Sequence record: SRR31156797_3141
Strand: one strand, 5' to 3'
Length of the DNA stretch: 38,946 nucleotides
The position numbers and the translations under genes were made by a program. The first letter of the stretch is position 1. Every line of letters begins with the position of its first letter. Shown here piece by piece: positions 1,256 through 25,088 of this stretch. The notes beneath the pieces were generated by a model that worked only from the letters and a program-made list of their open reading frames with translations, searched no databases and was not told the origin of the DNA.

Positions 1256-2626
1256 TTATACACCACCAAGATTGGACAGTGCAAGTGAAGCAAAGCTTAA
1301 GGCCAGGAAAAAACCAAACATATCAGTCACTGTAGTAAGTATGGGCCCCGATGCTAAAGCAGGATCGATATTGAATTTTTTCAGGATGAGCGGAATTGTT
1401 CCACCCAGCGAAACTGCCACAACAGTGTTAACAGCCAGTGCTCCGCCGACCACCAAACCAAGGTATATGTTGCTTTTCCACAAGTAAGCGGCAAAACCAA
1501 TGAGCAACCCAAGCACCAAACCATTTATTAACCCAACCGAAATTTCCTGCAACCACACTCTTATTACTTCTGTTGGCCTTACCATACCCAGCGAAAGTTC
1601 GCGCATACTCACTGCAACAGCCTGATTTCCTGAACACCCACTCATATCAGAAATGATGGGCAGAAATACCGCAAGTGCGATAACCGCCTGCAATGTATCC
1701 TGGTAAAAGGCAATCACACTGGCAGCAACAATATTCAGCAGTATATTTACCGATAACCAGGACAAACGACGTTTGGAACGCAGTAAAACCGGTGATGCCC
1801 TATATTCATCTCCACCAACAATACCCTGTGTTTCCAGGTGCTCAAATGTTTCTTGTTCATTAACGGCTTCAACAACACTTTTTCGTTGCAGCACCCCTAT
1901 CAGTTTATTACGATCATCAAGCACCGGAAGCCCGTAAAAATCGTATGTGTCGAACAGTTCGCTAATCTCCTTGAGTGGAGCATTAACATTGACAGTCATA
2001 ACATCTTTTACCACGATTTCCGAGAGTGTTTGACCGGGCATCGAAAGCAATAAATCCTGCATCTGTAAAACCCCGACAAACCGACTCTCTTTCGAAATAA
2101 CGTAAATGTATCTTACGGGATAGTATTTGTAATCTTCAGCATTCTTTCTAAAATCCTGAACCACTTTATTAATTGTCGTAGATTCATCATAACAAAAGAA
2201 TTCGGTAATCATTAAACCACCGGCAGTATCATCGTCATAATTGATCAGTTGTCTGGCGTCTGCGGCTTCCGATGGATCCATTTCAACCAGTATGGCCTCC
2301 AGATCTTTTTTATCTAATTCCCTGATCAGATCTGCACGATCATCACTCATCAGCTCGTTGATGATGGCTGCTGCTTCGCCGGAATTCATGTCTTCGATAA
2401 TATCAGCAGCCATGATATCGGGCAACTCATCTAAAACATCTGCAGCATCCTCCGGATCAAGCAAAGTCATTAATTGCTGTTGCTCCCGTTTGCTCAAACG
2501 GCTCATTAAATACACCACCTCACTTGCTGCAAGGGTATCAAGAAACTGTGTCAATGCTATCCGGTCGTCTGATTCAAGTAATAACCGGACATTCGCAACC
2601 GATACAATGCTTTCGTTTATATTCAT
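1256..2626 (-). CDS. mgtE: Magnesium transporter MgtE
   Basis: Acidic N-domain, CBS pair (AGGLMITE, LPVLDD), TM domain with RLSWL, PIISDMSGCSGNQ and DPALASGPILTTVTD. Confidence 0.95.
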   Translation of the reverse strand: MNINESIVSVANVRLLLESDDRIALTQFLDTLAASEVVYLMSRLSKREQQQLMTLLDPEDAADVLDELPDIMAADIIEDMNSGEAAAIINELMSDDRADLIRELDKKDLEAILVEMDPSEAADARQLINYDDDTAGGLMITEFFCYDESTTINKVVQDFRKNAEDYKYYPVRYIYVISKESRFVGVLQMQDLLLSMPGQTLSEIVVKDVMTVNVNAPLKEISELFDTYDFYGLPVLDDRNKLIGVLQRKSVVEAVNEQETFEHLETQGIVGGDEYRASPVLLRSKRRLSWLSVNILLNIVAASVIAFYQDTLQAVIALAVFLPIISDMSGCSGNQAVAVSMRELSLGMVRPTEVIRVWLQEISVGLINGLVLGLLIGFAAYLWKSNIYLGLVVGGALAVNTVVAVSLGGTIPLILKKFNIDPALASGPILTTVTDMFGFFLALSFASLALSNLGGV

Positions 2627-2736
2627 GATAAATATGATTTACAGATAAGCGTGAACCAAATTGGTAAATTTTTGCATCTGCTGAAGTATAGCAGTACATT
2701 AATTTTTTGCAAAATATGAAAACTATGAGAAAGGAG

Positions 2737-4989
2737 TTATTTCAATTTCTCCTGCCAGAATTCAACTTGTTGCCTGTTACCTGTTTTGGAATAGAAATCT
2801 ACCAAAGCATAAATGAAGTTTTGGTTTTCGGGTTCCAGTTCAACAGCATTTAACAGGTTTTGCTCTGCCTTTTCAGGTTGATTGATGTACTGGTAAATTA
2901 AACCCAGGTTGTAGAAAACCCTGCTTCTTTCCGGCATACGTTCACCAGCTATCTCAAGTATTTCGGCTGATTCGGGCAACTTATTCATTTCGGCAAGCAG
3001 CAGGCCCAGCGAGTAGTATACCTCAGATTGGTCCGGATGATCGCGGATGACTTCCCGGAACAGCTTTTCTGCCTTCTGGTTCTCAGCCTTTGCATTATAA
3101 ACCATAGCGAGATTGATTTTTGCCGGGTAAAACCGGTTATCCATCTCAACGGTTTTCTTATAGTATTTTTCGGCTTCAGCAGCATTGCCTTTTCTGGAAT
3201 ACAGGTTGGCCAGATTAAAGCTGCCTGTTGGGAAATCAGCCATATATTCCATGGATTGCTCATATTCTGCCAGGGCTTCATCATATACTTTGACCCATGC
3301 GGTATCGAAGGTTTCTGGAGGCAATTGCGAAAGTTGCAGAGCGGCTTCCGCTCTCACGGCCTTCACTGGGTCCGTTAACATTGGCACAAACGCCGATTTA
3401 AACTCCTCAATGGTCTGGGGGTGAAGGTTTCGCACTGCATAGTGGCGGATAATCGGATCCTCGTCAGTCAGGCGCAATTTCAACGTATTGAAAGCTTTTT
3501 CATCAGGATAGTTGCCCAGCAGAGCCAGCGCAGTAGCGCGCACCATTACCGGGTACAAATCCACCGAAGCATTGGCAATGGCAATCAGTCCGTCTAGGGC
3601 TGCAGGATCGGTATTCTCGCCGGCGGCAATGGTAGTTCCGTAATGTGCAAGACGGCTTTTGCCGTACCATTCGGTGATGTAACTCTCTGACCATTCGGCA
3701 GATTTATCCGTGTGGCAGCTGTTGCAGGCATTGGGCACACCCAGACTGATAGTCAGGTCAGGCCGTGGAATTCTGAAACTGTGGTCACGTCGGTAATCCA
3801 CGCCCATGTAATATCCTCCGTCCATATGGCAATTAATACAAAGTGCTCCCTCGCCTTCCAGGTTGTACATCTGGCGGTGGTTGCCTTCCTGGAGCTCAGG
3901 ATTGTCTTTGATTTTATGAAAGTGATGATTGTATGTGTCGTATTCTTCTGGGCGGTGGCATTGCAGGCAAAGATCGTTCCCGGTCTTCACCAGTTTGAGG
4001 CTGTGTACATCATGGCAATCGTTGCATTTTACGTCCTGCATAAACATTTTACTTTGCAGGAATGACCCATACACATAGTCCTCCTCCAGTATTTGCCCAT
4101 CAGAATAATAGTAGGGTTCACCAGTGAGCTGTGGAATATAGTGATCAAGTAGGTGACTGCTGAAGTGGTCAAAATCACCCAGTGCCGAACGGCGCAGGTG
4201 GCAGCGGGCACAAAGGTCGGCATAAGCGCGGGTGCCCAGATCGCGGGTGTTGACAACCAGGGCAGTGTTATTATCCAGCGGACGGGCCATCTCGGGAAGC
4301 TTTGCCCAATCCAGGTGTGCTGAGCCCGGCCCGTGGCACGATTCACAATTCACGTCAATATCCGACCAGGTGGTTTGGTAGGATTCCGTTTTCAGATCGT
4401 AGTTTTTTTGCAGATGCGTTGAATGACAATCAGCACACATGCCATTCCAGTTTTGGGCCTGGTTGGTCCAGTAAAGCCAGTTATCCGAATCAACTTCTTC
4501 ATCAGGGTAAACAGCTTCCGACATGTCGTACCATTTGTTATCCCGCGAATCCCAGGTCATGTGCAGGGTTTGCATTTTGCCGTTTTCGAACGGGATGAGG
4601 TATTGCTGCAAAGGCCACCAGCCAAAGGTGTGCGTAATTTCAAACTCTTTGAAAATGCCTCCGGGGCCGTTGGTAAAAACAAAGTACCTGTCATCTTTTT
4701 TGTAAAACCTGCTGGTATCGCCTATTCTTGAAACAAAGAAGCCATCATCAAAATCTCCCAGGACGGATTCTTTGGTGGCGATATCCATGGCCAGGTCATG
4801 ATCGGAATGTTTCCACAGGTCATGCTCAATTTTGTGGCATTCGATGCATGTTTCGCCGCCCACGAAATGGGGTTTGGCCGTAACAGCGCCTTCTCCAGGA
4901 TCTGAATCCTGGAATTTCATCCACTGCGCCGGAAAAACCAGCACGATGACCAGTGTTGCGATAAACCCTATGATGCGATAGTTTTTGAT
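2737..4989 (-). CDS. Octaheme c-type cytochrome with C-terminal HEAT and TPR repeats, N-terminally anchored
   Basis: Eight CxxCH motifs (CIECH, CADCH, CESCH, CARCH, CNDCH, CLQCH, CINCH, CNSCH), then HEAT-like (DEDPIIRHYAV, DPVKAVRAEAA) and TPR repeats. The ORF track starts at GTG 4944, but the frame stays open to ATC 4989, adding IKNYRIIGFIATLVI. Confidence 0.9.
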   Translation of the reverse strand: MKNYRIIGFIATLVIVLVFPAQWMKFQDSDPGEGAVTAKPHFVGGETCIECHKIEHDLWKHSDHDLAMDIATKESVLGDFDDGFFVSRIGDTSRFYKKDDRYFVFTNGPGGIFKEFEITHTFGWWPLQQYLIPFENGKMQTLHMTWDSRDNKWYDMSEAVYPDEEVDSDNWLYWTNQAQNWNGMCADCHSTHLQKNYDLKTESYQTTWSDIDVNCESCHGPGSAHLDWAKLPEMARPLDNNTALVVNTRDLGTRAYADLCARCHLRRSALGDFDHFSSHLLDHYIPQLTGEPYYYSDGQILEEDYVYGSFLQSKMFMQDVKCNDCHDVHSLKLVKTGNDLCLQCHRPEEYDTYNHHFHKIKDNPELQEGNHRQMYNLEGEGALCINCHMDGGYYMGVDYRRDHSFRIPRPDLTISLGVPNACNSCHTDKSAEWSESYITEWYGKSRLAHYGTTIAAGENTDPAALDGLIAIANASVDLYPVMVRATALALLGNYPDEKAFNTLKLRLTDEDPIIRHYAVRNLHPQTIEEFKSAFVPMLTDPVKAVRAEAALQLSQLPPETFDTAWVKVYDEALAEYEQSMEYMADFPTGSFNLANLYSRKGNAAEAEKYYKKTVEMDNRFYPAKINLAMVYNAKAENQKAEKLFREVIRDHPDQSEVYYSLGLLLAEMNKLPESAEILEIAGERMPERSRVFYNLGLIYQYINQPEKAEQNLLNAVELEPENQNFIYALVDFYSKTGNRQQVEFWQEKLK

Positions 4990-5008
4990 GGTTTAGTTTT
5001 ATTTTTTC

Positions 5009-5040
5009 ACGTTGATACGCACGGCCGTGCGTATTTACGT
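5009..5040. repeat. REP-like palindrome
   Basis: Perfect 20-bp palindrome atacgcacggccgtgcgtat (5015-5034), flanked by acgt on both sides, between the Rieske and octaheme genes. Confidence 0.7.
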
Positions 5041-5070
5041 GATGTTTCCTTTATTTTATGTTCTGTTTTG

Positions 5071-5580
5071 TTATGTTCCATACACCGCCTGCCCCTTCTC
5101 AAACCTGTCCCGTTTCATGGGCCTTCCGGTATCCACCTTCACCACACCATTTTCTACGATCACCGGGAAATAATCCAGGGCCCGAGGTGCCGGAGGGTTG
5201 ATTACATTTCCGGTGATATCAAACTGTGAGGCATGACAGGGGCAGATGAATTTTCCTTCGGCAGCATCCCAGTTTACCGAGCAGGCCAGATGTGAACATT
5301 TCAGCGAAAGCGCCAGCAATCCGCCATCCTCCAGCCTTACCAGGTAAAACTGCCCGCTTCGCACAGGGGTTACCGATCCTTTGGTAATCTGGTTGAGGTT
5401 TCCAACGGTTTTTAAGCTGGTAATCTGTCCCTGAGATTTTCTTTCTGACGGCGAAAAAAATGAAGAAAACACCCAGGCCAGTTCCAGCCCTGCAACAGCA
5501 CCCAAACCTACCCACAGTTTCTTAATGAAGCCACGGCGGGGTTCCGTCTTTTGGGTTTTATGTTCGTTCTGTTTTTGCAT
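5071..5580 (-). CDS. qcrA: Rieske [2Fe-2S] subunit of a Rieske/cytochrome b complex (QcrA/PetC-like)
   Basis: Twin-arginine motif RRGFIKK followed by a TM helix; box I CSHLAC, box II CPCHASQF; C-terminal PPAPRAL. Confidence 0.92.
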   Translation of the reverse strand: MQKQNEHKTQKTEPRRGFIKKLWVGLGAVAGLELAWVFSSFFSPSERKSQGQITSLKTVGNLNQITKGSVTPVRSGQFYLVRLEDGGLLALSLKCSHLACSVNWDAAEGKFICPCHASQFDITGNVINPPAPRALDYFPVIVENGVVKVDTGRPMKRDRFEKGQAVYGT

Positions 5581-5582
5581 GT

Positions 5583-6896
5583 TTAAAAAATCAGTTTCAT
5601 CCCTTCACCCCTGAAAAATGTCCCAACAAGCATCAAAATGATATATGCCGTTGAAAATAAAATGAATAACGCCAGCACCAAATCGATGCGCTGGCTGCTG
5701 AATTTTTTCTTTATGAAAAATACAAATCCATATGTCATGCCTGAGAGGACCACCAAAGGAATTAAACCTTCACCAATCCATGCCGGCAATATTTTTTCGT
5801 TTTGCTGAAAATGCAAAACATATTCATCCAGTAAAATCAATAAAATAGTTATCACAAAGCCGGTAATTGACGACCAGAAAATGATGGGTTTAAAAGTTGT
5901 CATTGTAAAGTCCCGGTGATCCTCGTTTTTCTGAAATTTCAGAAATGGAAAGCATGTAAATCCAATCAATAAAATCAACGGGATAATAAATACGGCAAAA
6001 GTAGGGTGAAAATGCAGCAACAATTCCTGAAAACCCTGGAAATACCACGGCGATTTTGCGGGGTTGGGGCTGAATGCCGGGTTGGCTTTTTCCTGCAGGG
6101 GTGCATCCAGCGCCAGGCTGAAAACAAGGATAAACGCGATAAGGGCCAGTGCGGTTGCCATTTCACGATTCACCAGGTTGGGAAATGAATCGGTTAACTT
6201 CATTTCAGATTTATCAACTTTCCGTGGAAGAATGACACCTCCATTTTTCCTCACTTTATAAAAATGCCACACCAGCAAAATCGTAAGTAATCCGGGGATT
6301 ACCGCAGTGTGAAAGGTATAAAAAATAGTCAGAGTTTCTGTGCCAACATCAGAACCACCACGCAAAGCTGTTTTCAAGCCTTCACCGATTAGCGGGACAT
6401 ATTCCAGCATGCTTGTGTTCACCGTTACCGCCCAATACGAGAGTTGATCCCAGGGCAACAGGTAGCCGGTGAAGTTGATAAAGATCACACCGAGAAATAA
6501 GCCAATGCCGATCACCCAGTTCCAGTGGCGGGGCGGGAGGAAAGCGCCTGTTAAAAATACCCGCAACAGGTGCAAGAAGGAAATGATAATAAGAAAAATC
6601 CCGGACCAGTGGTGGACGTTACGGATTAGCTGCCCGAAGATGATGCTGTTTTGCATGAACAGGATTGAATCGTAGGCGCCCCCCGGTGAGGGATCGTAAT
6701 GAAACAGCAGCAATATCCCGGTAATTACCTGTAAAAGTATCACTGTAAGTGCCATCCCGCCTAACCCAAATGTATGTGCAAAAGCCAGATTGGCTTCTGG
6801 TATCCTTAGTGGATGAATGGCCGTGAACAGGTTTTGTGTTCTTCTTTTTGGAAGCGGGCTGGTATTTGTTTTATCTTTTGACAAGTCTGGTTTCAA
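5583..6896 (-). CDS. qcrB: Cytochrome b (b6 plus subunit IV-like fusion; QcrB/PetB-like)
   Basis: GLGG, ITGILL, RNVHHW, LHLLRVF, FTGYLLPWDQLSYWA and FHT...WHF give four heme-b His. The Qo-loop region reads NPAKSPWYF. TTG start. Confidence 0.92.
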   Translation of the reverse strand: MKPDLSKDKTNTSPLPKRRTQNLFTAIHPLRIPEANLAFAHTFGLGGMALTVILLQVITGILLLFHYDPSPGGAYDSILFMQNSIIFGQLIRNVHHWSGIFLIIISFLHLLRVFLTGAFLPPRHWNWVIGIGLFLGVIFINFTGYLLPWDQLSYWAVTVNTSMLEYVPLIGEGLKTALRGGSDVGTETLTIFYTFHTAVIPGLLTILLVWHFYKVRKNGGVILPRKVDKSEMKLTDSFPNLVNREMATALALIAFILVFSLALDAPLQEKANPAFSPNPAKSPWYFQGFQELLLHFHPTFAVFIIPLILLIGFTCFPFLKFQKNEDHRDFTMTTFKPIIFWSSITGFVITILLILLDEYVLHFQQNEKILPAWIGEGLIPLVVLSGMTYGFVFFIKKKFSSQRIDLVLALFILFSTAYIILMLVGTFFRGEGMKLIF

Positions 6897-6959
6897 TCAG
6901 GTATTGTGAGGTAAAAATACCTTTTCTTAACTGAAACCCTTGAAAGTTACAAGATATCA

Positions 6960-6988
6960 GGTTAATTTGAAACCAGTTTAAATTAACC
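6960..6988. promoter_or_regulatory. Imperfect palindrome upstream of the cytochrome b cluster (possible operator)
   Basis: ggttaatttgaaac-ca-gtttaaattaacc, about 65-90 nt upstream of the qcrB start and next to a TAACTTTC -7-like element on the minus strand. Confidence 0.35.
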
Positions 6989-7103
6989 GGAATCCTTTGA
7001 TATTATACATGTTGGTTCTGGGTTTTAATTGAAACAAAGGATATCTGCAATTTATGTAATTCAACGAGCTATTTAAATTCAAATGCAAACATGGTTGAGA
7101 TAA

Positions 7104-9038
7104 TCAGGATTTATCCGGTTTATCTGTAACGTCTTCATTAGATTGTGCATAAATTTCCTGAATCTCCTCGCGCAACGTGGTGTCATCCCAGGCCATATCC
7201 GATTCATGGATCGAGTCTTCACGCTCAGCAGAAAATATTTGCTGGAGATCCTGCGAAAACCTCCGGGCCTTTTGAATATAAGTTTTGTCCTCGGCTTTCC
7301 ACAATTTAAACATTTCATCCATAATTTGTTCGTCGTGAAACTTAAACCTTTGCATGGCCCTGTATGACTGGTAGTGGTTAAATCCCAATTCGCACACTGC
7401 TTTTGATACCAAATCCAGAGAAGCGTCATAGGTTTCACGGCGATAATAATCCACATTTTTATCCTTGAGTGCAAACATGTGCCAGACATCATGAGCCCGT
7501 GCGAAAATCTTCACATGCGGATGGTGTTTTTTCACGTAATCCACAATTTCAAGATTCTTCTCCTGTTCATCAATAGCGATAATAATGAGTTTTGCATTGG
7601 CAATGCCGGCTGACTCCAGCAAATCGTGGCGCGATGTGTCGCCATAATAAACTTTATGGCCAAATTTGCGGAGTATTTCTACATTTTCGGGATTATTATC
7701 GAGGATAGTTGCATTAATTCCTGAAATCTTTAAGAAACGCCCGATTATCACGCCAAACCTGCCAAAACCGGCAAGGATAACAGGGTTCTCATTTTCTTCA
7801 ATCTCATCTTCCTCCAATTCATTGGCAGCATTTTCCATCATTGGCTGGAAAACTTTTTCGTTGAGTAGCAAGAGGAGTGGAGTAATGGCCATTGATAGTG
7901 CAACAACGATCAGCAGAATACCTGCAATTTCATCGTCATAAATGGCATTTTGACGGGAGAATGAAATCAACACAAATGCAAATTCCCCCGCCTGGGCCAG
8001 CGAAAAAGAGAACAGCAATTCCTGTCCGGATTTCAGTCCAAAGGCTTTTCCAAGCCCGAAGAGTATTCCAAATTTGATCACCACAAGCAGTCCGAGCAAC
8101 CCCAAAATCAGCCAGGTACTATCGAAAAGCACATTAAAATCGATGCCGGCACCCACAGCAATAAAGAACAATCCCAGCAGCAAACCTTTAAACGGTTCGA
8201 TATCAGCTTCCAGTTCATGGCGGTATTCGTTGTCGGCAAGCACAACGCCGGCCAGGAATGTTCCAAGTGCCGGAGAGAGTCCAACTGCATTCATAGCAAC
8301 TGCAATGGCTACGACCAGCAGCAGGGCAGAAGCCGTGAAAATCTCACGCATACCGGTGCTGGCAATCATCCTGAAGAAATGTCGGGCCAGGAACCGGCCG
8401 ATAAAAATAATGGCGGCCACTATGCCAATTATAACCAGTAATTGCAGCCAGCCGGCCAGGGCTGCAACTCCGGTTTCATGATATCCATCAGCGTTGTTGA
8501 TGTCGTGAGCAACTTCAGCAGCCAGAAGTGGTAAAATGGCCAGGATGGGGATTACGGCAATATCCTGGAAAAGTAAAACGGTAAAACTCGATTCTCCACC
8601 TCTGGATTTGAGCAACCCTTTCTCTGCCAGCGATTGCAGCACGATAGCCGTGGATGAAAGCGCCAATGTTAAGCCAATTGTGACCGATTGGGAGAGGTTC
8701 AGTCCAAAAGCCAGCAGGGATATGCCTCCGATTATGATCGCTGTCAGCACAACCTGTAAGCCACCCAACCCGAAAATCATCCGCCTGAGTTTCCAAAGCA
8801 GCGAAGGTTTCAACTCCAGGCCAATAAGGAACAACATCATCACCACACCAAATTCTGCAAAGTGCATCACATCGGCGCCTTCCTCGCCAACCCAGCCTAA
8901 AACAAATGGCCCGATTATGATCCCTGCAAGTAAATATCCCAAGACTGATCCCAGCCCCAGTCTTTTGGCAATGGGCACCGAAACCACAGCAGCCAACAGA
9001 TAGATCGTGGCCTGAAAGAAAAATCCGTCGTTATGCAT
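7104..9038 (-). CDS. kefB: CPA2 K+/H+ antiporter with KTN domain (KefB/KefC family)
   Basis: AEFGVVMMLFLIGLEL, LLFQDIAVIP, regulatory loop HELEADIEPFKGLLLGLFF, KTN Rossmann motif GFGRFG. Confidence 0.9.
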   Translation of the reverse strand: MHNDGFFFQATIYLLAAVVSVPIAKRLGLGSVLGYLLAGIIIGPFVLGWVGEEGADVMHFAEFGVVMMLFLIGLELKPSLLWKLRRMIFGLGGLQVVLTAIIIGGISLLAFGLNLSQSVTIGLTLALSSTAIVLQSLAEKGLLKSRGGESSFTVLLFQDIAVIPILAILPLLAAEVAHDINNADGYHETGVAALAGWLQLLVIIGIVAAIIFIGRFLARHFFRMIASTGMREIFTASALLLVVAIAVAMNAVGLSPALGTFLAGVVLADNEYRHELEADIEPFKGLLLGLFFIAVGAGIDFNVLFDSTWLILGLLGLLVVIKFGILFGLGKAFGLKSGQELLFSFSLAQAGEFAFVLISFSRQNAIYDDEIAGILLIVVALSMAITPLLLLLNEKVFQPMMENAANELEEDEIEENENPVILAGFGRFGVIIGRFLKISGINATILDNNPENVEILRKFGHKVYYGDTSRHDLLESAGIANAKLIIIAIDEQEKNLEIVDYVKKHHPHVKIFARAHDVWHMFALKDKNVDYYRRETYDASLDLVSKAVCELGFNHYQSYRAMQRFKFHDEQIMDEMFKLWKAEDKTYIQKARRFSQDLQQIFSAEREDSIHESDMAWDDTTLREEIQEIYAQSNEDVTDKPDKS

Positions 9039-9639
9039 TTTTAATGGTTATTAGGTCATTTAAATATTGATAACTCAAAATTTCTGGTTCATCAAAAAGA
9101 TCATCGCGTAGGGAGACCAACAGGTTTTTATACAATCTGCCATAGTCCTCGATTTCTTTATCGTCAAGCAAATGGGTCCCGTGCACAACAAAAGGTGGGT
9201 AATACTCCATTTTGCAGAGTCTCACAGTTCGCTCAAAAGGAGCCAGCATTTGGTTTATAGTGTAACCTGCGCCGCCTTCAGGTTGATAACGATCCCTACG
9301 GCCACCGGCTGTTAGCACATTAAACATCTTTTTGCCAACCAGCGCATTTCCTTTACGGCCGTATGCCCAGTTATGCTGCAACACCAGGTCGATCCATTCC
9401 TTGATAATGGCTGGTGAACTATACCAGTAAAACGGGTGCTGCCAGATGATGATGTCATGTTCAGACATCAACTCCTGCTCACGCTTAACGTTGATGTGGA
9501 AATCAGGATAGGTATCATACAAATTATGAATTTTCACACCCTCAACCTCTGTGATATGTTTCAACAGGGTTTTATTACTCCTTGACTTGTGCAAGGTTGG
9601 GTGGGCAAACAGAACCAGAATTTTCTTTTGATTTTTCAC
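9031..9639 (-). CDS. kefG: Kef ancillary NAD(P)H oxidoreductase (KefG/KefF, flavodoxin-2 fold)
   Basis: LVLFAHP...S, LYDTYPDFHINVKREQ, QHPFYWYSSPAIIKEWID; overlaps the kefB start by 8 nt; GTG start. Confidence 0.9.
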   Translation of the reverse strand: MKNQKKILVLFAHPTLHKSRSNKTLLKHITEVEGVKIHNLYDTYPDFHINVKREQELMSEHDIIIWQHPFYWYSSPAIIKEWIDLVLQHNWAYGRKGNALVGKKMFNVLTAGGRRDRYQPEGGAGYTINQMLAPFERTVRLCKMEYYPPFVVHGTHLLDDKEIEDYGRLYKNLLVSLRDDLFDEPEILSYQYLNDLITIKNA

Positions 9640-23276: not shown

Positions 23277-23771
23277 CTACTTTGAAAACACATAATCGGT
23301 GTCAGCAGTAGCCGCATGACAACCCCAGCACATACCGTCAAACAGGCCACGTTCGGCAATGTCGCCGGTGGCAGGATCGAGCATGAACCACTCCCAGTCG
23401 TTGTGATCTGGATCGAAACCGTTGCCACGTTTGGCCATGGCCGTTAATCCGATAACGTCCCCACCTTCGTTTTTTACCTCCTTAAAGAACATGGTTCCCA
23501 CAGGGTATTTGCCACCATCACTGCGGTTGTCGGTGTTGTTTTGCCAGACTTTTCTGGTTGCAGTTGAATCATTACCCGCATGTGCAGGGCCTAAAGCGGC
23601 ATCAGGGCCCATGGTTTCCACGATGAAACTCCATGCATCGTAGTTTTCAAATGAGCTGTCGTCGGCAATAAATTCCGTAACAGGGTCATCATCATCGTCA
23701 TCATCGCATGATGTTAGGACGAAGCCAAAGGCCGCTAAAAAAATTAACATTAAAGAAAATTTACGTTTCAT
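23277..23771 (-). CDS. Cytochrome P460-family lipoprotein
   Basis: Lipobox VLTSC, acidic linker, YPVGTMFFKE, AMAKR..GF...DWEW, C-terminal CWGCH...DYVF. Confidence 0.8.
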   Translation of the reverse strand: MKRKFSLMLIFLAAFGFVLTSCDDDDDDDPVTEFIADDSSFENYDAWSFIVETMGPDAALGPAHAGNDSTATRKVWQNNTDNRSDGGKYPVGTMFFKEVKNEGGDVIGLTAMAKRGNGFDPDHNDWEWFMLDPATGDIAERGLFDGMCWGCHAATADTDYVFSK

Positions 23772-24482: not shown

Positions 24483-25088
24483 TTAATCTAAAAAGTTTTC
24501 TTCAATACACGCCCTGAGTTGAAGTTTTGAGCGGTGCATAATCACCCATAAATTTGACGGCGTGATATTTAAATCCTTACAGATTTCAGGCGTTCTTTTT
24601 TCTTCTAGAAATTTTAATGTGATGAGCGCAAGCCACTTATCTGGTAAGAGTTCCATGCAAAATTTAAGTATCCGCGTGAACTCATCATCATCCAGTAATT
24701 CGTTATCATCTTCGTGCCAGTTAACAGGCCGGTCTTTTTTGTTCCATCTTCCATACTGGTCAAAATACCTGTTGAGAAATGGGGCTCCCTGGTTGTCATG
24801 TTTCATTTCACTTTCGCCCATTTCATATTTCACAAAGGCCTTCCTGAAATGATCTACAATTTTATTTTTGAGAATGGCAAACAGCCAGGTTTTTTCAGTG
24901 CTGTTTCCTTTAAAGTTTTCCATGGCATGAAGCGCAGAAAGAAAAGTTTCCTGTACCAGGTCTTCAGCTACAGCCTTTTTACCAGTGCGATGATATGCCC
25001 AGGAGTAAAGGTCGTCGCCATACTTTTTTACCCACAATTCAGGATTAAATACTTTGGATGCGCTCTTTGTCATAACAGACTTCTTCAA
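24483..25088 (-). CDS. ECF sigma-70 factor
   Basis: AEDLVQETFLSA, TWLFAILKNKIVD, EICKDLNITPSNLWVIMHRSKLQLRAC. The start may be TTG 25088 or ATG 25073. Confidence 0.92.
   Translation of the reverse strand: MKKSVMTKSASKVFNPELWVKKYGDDLYSWAYHRTGKKAVAEDLVQETFLSALHAMENFKGNSTEKTWLFAILKNKIVDHFRKAFVKYEMGESEMKHDNQGAPFLNRYFDQYGRWNKKDRPVNWHEDDNELLDDDEFTRILKFCMELLPDKWLALITLKFLEEKRTPEICKDLNITPSNLWVIMHRSKLQLRACIEENFLD

Follow-up and report, generated by a model that had tools for sequence, protein, structure and literature searches.

Three linked genes for a cytochrome b, a Rieske protein and an octaheme cytochrome c: a conserved module that may form a b6f-like complex

Is an octaheme cytochrome c that is encoded beside a Rieske/cytochrome b pair a subunit of the same complex, and where would its electrons come from and go to? 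The question is raised by three genes on the minus strand of a 38,946-nt stretch of DNA (SRR31156797_3141, hereafter the window). The ORF listing, translations and Pfam matches confirmed the co-oriented order read in an earlier note: a fused cytochrome b (5583..6896, 437 aa, TTG start), a Rieske [2Fe-2S] protein (5071..5580, 169 aa) whose gene starts 2 nt beyond the stop codon of cytochrome b, and an octaheme cytochrome c with HEAT-like and TPR repeats (2737..4944, 735 aa from a GTG; 2737..4989 in an extended reading). The lack of a c1/f-type gene was upheld as well, with no Pfam match to cytochrome c1 or cytochrome f in the 30 larger window ORFs scanned. The three reading frames are intact and every cofactor ligand is kept; a protein of equal length and 85% identity to its window trio counterpart exists elsewhere. 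On the 5′ side, the trio is preceded by a KefC-like/KefF-like pair (7104-9639) and on the 3′ side followed by MgtE (1256-2626), neither of them respiratory. The 207-nt spacer that separates the KefC-like stop from the cytochrome b start (6897..7103, minus strand) would presumably contain the promoter of the trio; a promoter was sought in it and none was identified.

Synteny was surveyed in the best 80 genome loci for the octaheme, chosen on the motifs of the heme domain alone. The Rieske gene lies directly upstream of the octaheme gene in 69 of the 72 loci having at least 600 nt of upstream sequence, and cytochrome b is found upstream in 54 of the 58 having at least 2100 nt. The order cytochrome b-Rieske-octaheme, on one strand, is kept in all loci showing both partners (63/63). 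Overlap of the Rieske stop and octaheme start codons is the commonest arrangement in other loci (25/70 related loci; 20 share 4 nt and 5 share 1 nt). Moreover, the identities of the three proteins vary in step from one pair of loci to the next (r 0.87, 0.85 and 0.78; Mantel p 0.001, 36 loci). The earlier note had considered that octaheme homologs might rarely sit next to cytochrome b and Rieske genes. Adjacency, constant order, codon overlaps and correlated identities show the opposite, and the octaheme-HEAT-TPR family thus gains a concrete redox partner, as that note had anticipated. The trio is therefore a conserved module, not a local oddity. Nor is it special to Bacteroidota, the setting first given to it, since its loci span Bacteroidota, Desulfobacterota, Ignavibacteriota, Calditrichota, Gemmatimonadota, Acidobacteriota, Latescibacterota and Gammaproteobacteria. 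Desulfobacterales frequently carry the family, a MAG titled Eth-SRB2 being one example, and cultured carriers include Saccharicrinis aurantiacus and Desulfoluna butyratoxydans. Recurrent in many anaerobic bacteria, the trio has never been studied. Its only other recurrent neighbour is a sulfatase (17/80 loci, in variable places), and in the 80 loci no conserved gene for a redox enzyme was seen up to 8 kb away from it. The octaheme gene stands alone, without neighbouring cytochrome b and Rieske genes, in 3 of the 72 loci (L002, L074 and L077), and L002 encodes the closest relative of the window octaheme (76% identity).

The window cytochrome b matched Pfam Cytochrome_B with 149.6 bits (cut-off 27.2), and also Cytochrom_B_N_2. 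Against NCBIfam, the ExtP-like (250.3 bits, cut-off 290) and ExtQ-like (42.5 bits, cut-off 150) families were both sub-threshold. Hydropathy analysis gave nine hydrophobic segments (4+5), corresponding to a b6-like four-helix part fused to a five-helix subunit-IV-like part; the top PDB matches are cytochrome b6 chains (E 1.8e-62). His95, His109, His196 and His211, invariant in 54/54 relatives, are predicted to be the ligands for two b hemes in the b6-like part. Their spacing of 13 and 14 residues follows the b6-type rule. The heme-ci cysteine is missing, with a glycine in its place. The Qo-site motif reads SPWY in the window (residues 282-285; 6042..6053, minus strand), the family consensus being APWY: the first position is Ala in 52 and Ser in 2 of 54 relatives, the window being one of the latter, and the following Pro, Trp and Tyr occur in 53, 54 and 52, respectively. 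This APWY motif, devoid of the usual acidic residue, is of an uncharacterised type. The window protein has A26 at a position occupied by His in 44/48 relatives. Short cytochrome b relatives carrying TWCMGG exist, with about 43% identity.

The Rieske protein (Pfam Rieske, 46.7 bits, cut-off 20.3) carries a twin-arginine (TAT) signal, whose RR at residues 15-16 is found in 54/56 relatives, together with a single hydrophobic segment at its N-terminus. The cluster boxes C95, H97, C100, C113, C115 and H116, including the disulfide cysteines, are invariant, as is the 'S-F' signature (S118 and F120, 56/56 relatives); the window reads CSHLAC where 54/56 relatives read CTHLGC. Its top PDB matches, 9rk4 (6.1e-26) and 9rk3 (3.4e-20), are the anammox proteins Kuste4569 and Kustd1480, measured above +300 mV (PMC12954380), and PetC models are also matched. 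Kao and Hunte describe a Rieske class with the S-F signature, of about +260 mV, paired with APWY/GPWY cytochromes b (PMC4122944). Fusions of the Rieske protein were looked for and none turned up, which is weak evidence against a joint complex.

Octaheme relatives possess an N-terminal membrane anchor starting WKxxGLIATxxIVLxxP. In the window, the open frame extends upstream past the GTG as far as an ATC at 4989, directly after TAA 4993-4995, and encodes the matching residues; this putative signal-anchor (4918..4989, minus strand) is reached only from that ATC. The octaheme gene is therefore more likely 2737..4989, encoding 750 aa from a non-canonical start, which would reduce the Rieske-octaheme gap from 126 to 81 nt. 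In a DNA alignment, which is gapped at this point, L002 starts with GTG and L001 with ATG, and we read ACC at the equivalent place in the window. The spacer contains a stem-loop (5007..5042, minus strand) with a perfect palindrome core (5016-5033) unique within the window. Its RNA fold reaches -19.9 kcal/mol (z -5.35), a stability equalled by none of 200 shuffles, and it has no Rfam match.

The heme domain (residues ~40-450 of the 750-aa reading; 3640..4872, minus strand) contains eight CxxCH motifs in translation, CIECH, CADCH, CESCH, CARCH, CNDCH, CLQCH, CINCH and CNSCH, beginning at C48, C185, C215, C260, C322, C341, C384 and C422, respectively, the first of them about 28 residues past the anchor helix. 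As judged by sequence profiles, the domain is related to the OcwA/MccA/c554 group (PDB matches: OcwA 6i5b, 1.4e-22; 6qvm, 2.1e-12; c554, 3.8e-5; MccA, 6e-5). Across 71 proteins, 87 of its 411 columns are invariant, and the most conserved stretch lies around heme 2 (WLYWTNxxQNWNGMCAxCHST), with 11 invariant positions and 6 more kept in 69 or 70 proteins. Eight histidines outside the motifs are conserved: H64, H225, H329, H355, H358 and H403 are invariant and H356 and H449 reach at least 90%. The tail consists of a HEAT-like helical repeat region (residues ~453-567; 3289..3633, minus strand) and a TPR region extending to the stop codon (residues ~568-750; 2737..3288, minus strand). HEAT_2 is marginal in the window (27.9 bits against a cut-off of 27.7) and found in 14/18 relatives; the family profile matches HEAT-like alphaRep PDB chains over positions ~444-567, with E down to 4.5e-27. 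Several TPR families scored well above their cut-offs, and TPRs occur in 18/18 relatives. The best 150 octaheme representatives are mostly 720-810 aa long; heme-domain clusters without TPR exist. The tail is the least conserved part, with 2 (HEAT) and 4 (TPR) invariant columns compared to 87 in the heme domain, and a median identity to the window of 40-41% compared to 57%.

Taken together, these results lead us to favour, as a probable reading, that the three genes encode one membrane Rieske/cytochrome b complex of b6f-like type, in which a membrane-anchored octaheme would replace cytochrome f/c1. The frequencies and fixed order of the partners, the codon overlaps and the parallel identities all argue for it, as do the invariant b-heme histidines, Rieske ligands and disulfide cysteines and the octaheme anchor present in the family. 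Consistently, the 4+5 segments of cytochrome b match the five-helix subunit IV modelled for anammox complexes, the nearest solved Rieske structures are high-potential anammox proteins, with the S-F signature invariant, and Geobacter offers a precedent in ExtO and ExtP, clustered with multiheme cytochromes. The earlier note had a periplasmic octaheme fed by the Rieske/cytochrome b pair. The link holds, and the N-terminal anchor and the kinship with OcwA, MccA and c554 suggest that the octaheme is rather a c-type subunit belonging to the complex.

In such a complex, the Rieske protein would be exported by the TAT route, both it and the octaheme would be held by N-terminal helices, and the latter would take the place of cytochrome f/c1. 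Menaquinol would be oxidised at the Qo site, the first electron passing from the high-potential Rieske cluster to the octaheme chain and the second crossing the membrane via hemes bL and bH to the Qi site, and the resulting Q cycle would conserve energy. The final acceptor would have to be of fairly high potential and could be reduced at an octaheme heme or by a loosely bound partner. The sequences establish the gene anatomy, the conserved ligands, the synteny and the kinship of the families; the physical association, the quinol-oxidising direction and such an acceptor are what we infer. OcwA is described as redox-active only between +100 and -450 mV (PMC6703420); a Rieske cluster near +260 to +300 mV would pass electrons uphill unless the octaheme hemes are tuned higher. 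Other observations speak against this reading: the solitary octahemes (3/72 loci), including the closest relative L002, the proposal that APWY-type complexes work in reverse (PMC4122944) and, in the window, the non-canonical octaheme start and the strong hairpin between the Rieske and octaheme genes.

Possibly, the octaheme is itself the terminal reductase. In this tentative variant, clearly less probable than the general reading, the three-subunit complex is the same, a heme with a free coordination site, most likely heme 2, would reduce a high-potential substrate in solution, for instance nitrite, nitric oxide or hydroxylamine, and the HEAT/TPR tail would be structural. It draws on the homology to OcwA, c554 and MccA, in which heme 2 either is five-coordinate or forms the active site, and on the reduction of nitrite and hydroxylamine by OcwA (PMC6703420). 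As we read the alignment, the eight motifs correspond to OcwA hemes 1-4 and 6-9, an MccA-type arrangement (PMC6703420). The peak of conservation around heme 2, the many invariant heme-domain columns and the lack of a conserved partner enzyme gene near the trio point the same way. Furthermore, a high-potential Rieske needs a high-potential sink, such as nitrite to NO at +380 mV (PMC12954380), and in Caldithrix a Rieske/cytochrome b pair lies beside an octaheme epsilon-Hao (PMC5317091). However, with eight conserved non-motif histidines for eight hemes, all hemes could be six-coordinate. In addition, the His-His pair over heme 2 of OcwA has no conserved counterpart in the octaheme, as read from the alignment, and neither CxxCK nor another catalytic heme motif is present.

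It is less probable still that the octaheme only carries electrons and that its TPR tail holds a terminal enzyme encoded elsewhere, as the first reading of the locus had it. TPR and HEAT repeats generally serve as scaffolds for protein binding, the tail is kept in all 18 relatives and in most of the best 150 representatives, judging by their length, and the eight non-motif histidines would fit an all-bis-His wire. Nevertheless, docking is left unsupported because no terminal enzyme is conserved beside the trio, within 8 kb in 80 loci, and because the tail is under much weaker constraint than the heme domain; heme-domain clusters lacking TPR also tell against it. In the anammox model, the multiheme subunit wraps its long helices around its own complex (PMC12954380), which suggests a structural role for such a tail.

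Reverse operation, in which a periplasmic or extracellular donor would feed the quinone pool through the octaheme and the Rieske protein by a pmf-driven reverse Q cycle, is unlikely, slightly more so than docking. Kao and Hunte call APWY characteristic of reverse-working complexes, citing the Geobacter metallireducens p-cresol system, but the proposal rests on that one uncharacterised case, none being characterised according to this source (PMC4122944). For the anammox systems, whose Rieske proteins come closest, quinol oxidation has been proposed (PMC12954380). The abundance of the family in Desulfobacterales, Eth-SRB2 included, and the absence of the acidic Qo residue would suit reversal; low-potential donors, however, would presumably not need a Rieske/cytochrome b machine. 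Many trio carriers are, moreover, fermentative or facultative Bacteroidales that are not known to be lithotrophic.

Least probable is that the genes are co-inherited while the octaheme is a separate membrane-tethered cytochrome that meets the pair transiently, and may in the window lineage be on its way to uncoupling or decay: the solitary genes of L002, L074 and L077, the long hairpin-bearing spacer, the lack of a canonical start codon and the departures from near-invariant residues (cytochrome b A26 and S282, Rieske CSHLAC) fit this, but the intact frames with every cofactor ligand, the 85% identical protein of equal length and the prevalence of stop/start overlaps in other loci do not.

Read as one b6f-like complex, the trio can be compared with several known systems. 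Cytochrome b6f provides the best solved cytochrome b matches, the same histidine spacing and the PetC likeness; in contrast, the trio cytochrome b is fused, not split, lacks the heme-ci cysteine and has APWY/SPWY for PEWY, and the octaheme stands in place of cytochrome f. Small subunits of b6f type were sought for the trio and none were found. The APWY clade of Kao and Hunte (2014) shares the Qo motif, the pairing of S-F Rieske signature and APWY/GPWY cytochromes b (PMC4122944) and, through the short relatives, TWCMGG. It is described, however, as mostly split and with WCMGG, and the likeness is by motif, not by tree.

OcwA of Thermincola potens (PDB 6I5B) is the best solved heme-domain match of the family profile; heme motifs are common to both, seven conserved histidines align, and the likeness includes a c554-like plus NrfA-like build (PMC6703420). 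OcwA itself has nine hemes, a Gram-positive cell-surface location and a C-terminal three-helix bundle, whereas the trio octaheme has eight hemes, without the heme-5 motif, an N-terminal membrane anchor, a HEAT/TPR solenoid end and the Rieske/cytochrome b linkage. In the nap locus of Caldithrix abyssi, from the same superphylum, a c1-less Rieske/cytochrome b pair adjoins the octaheme epsilon-Hao and is proposed to feed it (PMC5317091). That octaheme, however, belongs to another family (Hao-like, no TPR), the pair lies inside the nap cluster and the gene numbering suggests Rieske first, unlike the trio.

In Geobacter extHIJKLMNOPQS, an ExtO (Rieske)/ExtP (cytochrome b) core is clustered with multiheme cytochromes c, with no c1 described (PMC5877670), and ExtP is the best NCBIfam match of the N-terminal part of the trio cytochrome b and ExtQ a match of its C-terminal part, both below the family cut-offs. 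There, ExtP is not fused to ExtQ, the cluster has its Rieske gene in front, and it adds porin-like and rhodanese-like proteins and several other cytochromes, absent from the trio. The anammox complexes of Kuenenia stuttgartiensis (Kuste4569-4574, Kustd1480-1485) differ in their unfused cytochrome b/subunit IV with a heme-ci cysteine where the trio has glycine, in their gene order, and in the NAD(P) oxidoreductase subunit and HAO-like protein, neither conserved near the trio; the HEAT/TPR tail is borne by the trio octaheme, and the likeness of the multiheme subunits is one of description. They nevertheless combine a b6-like cytochrome b with a five-helix subunit IV, a cytochrome c of six or eight hemes, equipped with a membrane helix, in place of cytochrome f and a high-potential Rieske protein in a menaquinone organism (PMC12954380), and no solved structure matches the window Rieske protein better than theirs.

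The module consists of three consecutive, co-oriented genes on the minus strand of the window. The cytochrome b gene (5583-6896, TTG start) encodes 437 aa matching Pfam Cytochrome_B with 149.6 bits, and its stop codon is separated by 2 nt from the start of the Rieske gene (5071-5580), whose 169-aa product has RRGF as its twin-arginine motif and CSHLAC and CPCHASQF as cluster boxes. The octaheme cytochrome gene follows (2737-4944 from a GTG, 735 aa), with eight CxxCH motifs, a HEAT-like stretch and TPR repeats. Open reading frames, translations and Pfam matches thus agree with the order, the 2-nt gap and the HEAT/TPR architecture described in the earlier note. Its statement that the cluster has no cytochrome c1/f-type gene also holds, since a Pfam scan of 30 larger ORFs across the window gave no match to cytochrome c1 or cytochrome f; their place is taken by the octaheme protein.

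The trio is bordered downstream by MgtE and directly upstream by a KefC-like K+ efflux protein and a KefF-like flavoprotein (7104-9639, minus strand), whose genes overlap each other by 8 nt. The KefC-like match (715 bits) is just under the cut-off of 752, and the pair is not conserved beside the trio in the other loci. A secretion-system sorting domain and a C25 peptidase encoded in the window are compatible with a Bacteroidota genome, and the nearest relative of the octaheme protein comes from a Lentimicrobiaceae MAG (76% identity). About 18 kb from the trio, beside an ECF-type sigma factor gene (24483-25088), lies the gene of a predicted 164-aa P460-family lipoprotein with a C-terminal CWGCH motif (23277-23771, minus strand). 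P460 proteins act on hydroxylamine and NO.

Linkage was examined in one genome per species, using two heme-domain motifs only as seeds. This gave more than 599 pattern matches, 390 of which were confirmed by tblastn, and synteny was called by tblastn with the proteins of the window as queries. Among the best 80 of the 390 loci, a Rieske gene was found in 69 of the 72 with at least 600 nt 5' of the octaheme gene, and cytochrome b in 54 of the 58 with at least 2100 nt upstream. All loci showing both genes (63/63) have the order cytochrome b-Rieske-octaheme on a single strand. Eight loci were too short upstream to be judged, two of which still show a partial Rieske gene. The synteny on which the reading of a wired module depended therefore extends well beyond the window.

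Only three of the 72 loci lack the Rieske gene. The closest octaheme relative, L002, has QueA upstream; L074, from Flavobacterium maritimum, has mannose-6-phosphate isomerase upstream and an octaheme with a lipoprotein-like N-terminus and no membrane anchor; L077, an Acidobacteria MAG, has a helicase on the other strand. The same three loci lack cytochrome b, together with L024, a closed-looking MAG chromosome in which a scaffold gap of 100 N (7010-7109) lies exactly at the expected cytochrome b site, so that this absence is an assembly artefact. The stand-alone octahemes of L074 (7962-10202) and L077 (4376-6715) sit on the longest branches of the octaheme tree (lengths 1.13 and 1.06; median 0.21).

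The Rieske stop and octaheme start overlap in 25 of 70 related loci, 20 of them with a 4-nt and 5 with a 1-nt overlap; these figures are based on longest-ORF starts, which can overreach. Pairwise identities of the trio proteins correlate across 36 loci (r 0.78-0.87, Mantel p 0.001), part of which would also be expected from shared ancestry alone. A search for Rieske domains fused to longer proteins found none, which is weak evidence. In a FastTree of 71 octaheme proteins the topology largely follows phyla, with Bacteroidota, Ignavibacteriota, Chlorobiota and Calditrichota on one side and Desulfobacterota with several smaller groups on the other; a few gammaproteobacterial sequences are nested among Desulfobacterales. 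MAG labels are possibly unreliable.

Additional partners were sought by clustering ORFs over the 80 loci, and no other gene was common to more than 17 of them. The most frequent, a sulfatase found in 17 loci, was rejected since its distance and strand vary and it is not a redox protein. A conserved fourth subunit in the larger intra-operon gaps of other loci was rejected as well, the small ORFs found there (L007 7002-7361, L031 793-1065, L032 6825-7256, L010 7589-7897 and L055 3907-4296, ends approximate) being unrelated. By eye, we take three of them to resemble the four-helix-bundle proteins of 23S rRNA intervening sequences and two to resemble GxxExxY-type proteins; such ORFs have apparently been inserted into an operon that is compact elsewhere. 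Seven Bacteroidota loci (including L023 10331-10981, L025 4442-5086 and L066 10782-11399) encode an ankyrin-repeat protein of some 205 aa near the trio, in two of them immediately downstream on the same strand; the protein is absent from the window.

The cytochrome b is a single protein rather than a split b6 plus subunit IV, with 4+5 hydrophobic segments by hydropathy analysis, and its 54 full-length relatives measure 382-494 aa. The b-heme ligands H95, H109, H196 and H211 are invariant in all 54, the two pairs being spaced by 13 and 14 residues. A 14-residue histidine spacing is the b6-type pattern. The best matches among solved structures are b6 chains. The cysteine that holds heme ci in the CxGG motif of b6f is replaced by glycine in 51/54, giving [W/F]GLGG. 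The Qo motif, a variant of the PxWY type, reads APWY in 52 of the 54 and SPWY in the window, its tryptophan being invariant (54/54). The best NCBIfam matches, ExtP (NF040969, 250.3 against a cut-off of 290) and ExtQ (NF040970, 42.5 against 150), are both sub-threshold. Short split relatives with 42-57% identity also exist, some with TWCMGG or TFCLGG. A WCMGG form is reported for the APWY clade by Kao and Hunte (PMC4122944), according to whom no APWY complex has been characterised. Long cytochromes b without the cysteine arose by fusion inside the diverse subfamily G, according to Dibrova et al. 2017 (PMC5600118); in the supplement text searched, no sequence from Bacteroidetes, Caldithrix, Ignavibacterium, Melioribacter or Desulfobacterium is mentioned.

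Directly 3' of the Qo motif lies a conserved stretch, QELLLHFHP (residues 290-298, 6003-6029), in which Q290, E291, H295 and P298 are invariant and H297 nearly so. These residues might serve as proton acceptors in place of the acidic residue that PEWY has and this family lacks, or else coordinate a metal or heme. Another conserved motif, LHx[H/R]P, lies at the N-terminus; in anammox models, an N-terminal histidine is proposed to bind an additional b heme.

In the Rieske protein, the cluster ligands and disulfide cysteines (C95, H97, C100, C113, C115 and H116) are invariant in 56/56 relatives and the twin-arginine RR is kept in 54/56. S118 and F120, two and four places after CxCH, are present in all 56. 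The family thus pairs an APWY Qo motif (SPWY in the window) with an S-F Rieske protein. S-F corresponds to about +260 mV in the scheme that Kao and Hunte quote, and they find Rieske proteins of this class or higher paired with APWY/GPWY cytochromes b (PMC4122944). The closest solved relatives are Kuste4569 and Kustd1480 of Kuenenia, whose potentials were both measured above +300 mV (PMC12954380).

The start of the octaheme gene is unusual. Its relatives carry an N-terminal hydrophobic anchor with the consensus WKxxGLIATxxIVLxxP, and in the window the corresponding residues, IKNYRIIGFIATLVIVLVFPAQW, are encoded in frame immediately 5' of the GTG, after a TAA. No ATG, GTG or TTG is present 5' of this anchor (4945-4995, minus strand), the first near-cognate candidate being an ATC at 4989. 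In the DNA alignment of the start region, which is gapped there, we read GTG in L002 and ATG in L001, another octaheme locus, where the window has ACC. Given how c-type cytochromes mature, the anchor is presumably needed for heme attachment: if translation began at the GTG, the protein would lack an export signal and could not receive its hemes. A sequencing error would explain such a start, but a homologue found elsewhere is 85% identical and has the same annotated length of 735 aa, so the odd start looks like a lineage trait.

The Rieske-octaheme spacer of 81-126 nt contains a hairpin (5007-5042, -19.9 kcal/mol, z -5.35) followed by an A-rich tract on the coding strand and by a T-rich tract on the opposite strand; it is therefore not a classic terminator. 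An Rfam search of 2600-7200 gave no match. Neither the sigma-70 promoter scan (11 against 9.2) nor the terminator scan (7 against 5.7) exceeded shuffled sequences, and a Bacteroidota promoter pattern had no match near the trio.

Several otherwise conserved positions differ in the window. Its cytochrome b has Ala26 (6819-6821) where 44/48 relatives have His, and SPWY (6042-6053) instead of APWY, and its Rieske protein has CSHLAC (5281-5298) where 54/56 have CTHLGC. These departures, the odd start codon and the absence of a cytochrome b/Rieske pair from L002 may jointly reflect relaxed constraint in the lineage of the window.

Conservation of the octaheme protein is concentrated in the heme domain, with 87 invariant columns of 411 against 2 in the HEAT-like and 4 in the TPR part; the flanks of heme 2 form the most conserved stretch. 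Hydropathy analysis indicates a single hydrophobic segment, at the N-terminus. The Pfam model Cytochrome_C554 matched 18/18 relatives. Against the PDB, the heme-domain profile retrieved OcwA (6i5b, 1.4e-22), c554 (1bvb, 3.8e-5) and MccA (4rkm, 6e-5), as well as 6qvm and a c552. TPR_CcmH_CycH also matched 18/18 relatives (best E 4.5e-13), but generic TPR models were stronger (to 6.5e-27); the matches were read as cross-matches and a link to cytochrome maturation was rejected.

PMC6703420 describes OcwA as a nine-heme protein with hemes 2 and 5 five-coordinate under His-His pairs and heme 9 His-Met, redox-active from +100 to -450 mV and slowly reducing nitrite and hydroxylamine. The protein studied here has eight CxxCH motifs, which we read from the alignments as OcwA hemes 1-4 and 6-9, the OcwA heme-5 motif having no counterpart; the numbering of the 6i5b chain was taken as that of the paper minus 29, judged from both His-His pairs. 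PMC6703420 equates the arrangement 1-4 and 6-9 with MccA. Eight histidines outside the motifs are conserved for eight hemes, and by this count all hemes could be six-coordinate. However, OcwA has enough histidines and yet two open hemes (PMC6703420), and the count was rejected as indecisive between an electron wire and an enzyme.

The family is large: with the heme domain as query, 6881 clusters at 50% identity were found at E <=1e-3 and 1593 at <=1e-30. The best 150 representatives are mostly 720-810 aa long, and heme-domain forms without TPR exist. Databases name these proteins only "tetratricopeptide repeat protein" or "CXXCH cytochrome", with no functional name, and for P0110, a 51%-identical homologue, the ESM Atlas matched only unnamed clusters of its own family. 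The link to a Rieske/cytochrome b core makes this very large octaheme-TPR family testable and assigns a defined redox partner to the APWY-type cytochromes b, which are uncharacterised. The trio is open to experiments in cultured carriers (Saccharicrinis aurantiacus, L067; Desulfoluna butyratoxydans, L068; Thermophagus sp., L066).

In the working model, the Qo site would oxidise quinol, electrons would move from the Rieske cluster to the anchored octaheme, and the b hemes would run a Q cycle. For APWY complexes, reverse operation has been proposed from one Geobacter metallireducens gene cluster, and menaquinol lies at about -80 mV, both according to PMC4122944. A Rieske protein of about +260 to +300 mV working from menaquinol needs a high-potential sink, and nitrogen oxides or similar acceptors would fit this. 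Low heme potentials like those of OcwA, if shared by the octaheme, would sit poorly with such a sink, unless the hemes are tuned higher. With the trio, the respiratory chains of many sediment anaerobes would gain a step resembling complex III, probably one that conserves energy. Among these anaerobes are Bacteroidales, which are usually described as being without complex III.

A bolder reading, which we regard as rather doubtful, is that the trio represents a widespread undescribed class of energy-conserving enzymes, in which a Q-cycle core is hard-wired to an OcwA/MccA-like octaheme acting as terminal reductase; its acceptor would be soluble and of high potential, for instance nitrite, NO, hydroxylamine, or a chelated metal or sulfur species. 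If true, this reading would offer a proton-motive route where quinol dehydrogenases of the NrfH, NapC and CymA type give none, to the benefit of anaerobic Bacteroidota, Desulfobacterota, Ignavibacteriota, Calditrichota, Gemmatimonadota and others.

Anammox bacteria and Geobacter already provide examples of Rieske/cytochrome b cores with multiheme subunits, and an ancestral status of such cores has been discussed (Dibrova et al. 2013, as cited in PMC5317091). Subscription papers aside, among them Dibrova 2013 and ten Brink 2013, which may show related operons, full-text searches found no description of the trio, its inverted gene order or the octaheme-TPR link. Compared with the anammox complexes, the trio differs in having no conserved NAD(P) oxidoreductase subunit beside it in the 80 loci. 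Shared features are a subunit IV part with five helices and a multiheme c anchored in the membrane, as judged here by hydropathy; the anammox complexes likewise have a five-helix subunit IV, and their hexa- or octaheme cytochrome, held by a membrane anchor, stands in for cytochrome f (PMC12954380). Because of this match in anatomy, the trio probably forms one complex. By the same analogy, the HEAT/TPR tail may be structural, since the multiheme subunit of the anammox model embraces the complex with long helices (PMC12954380).
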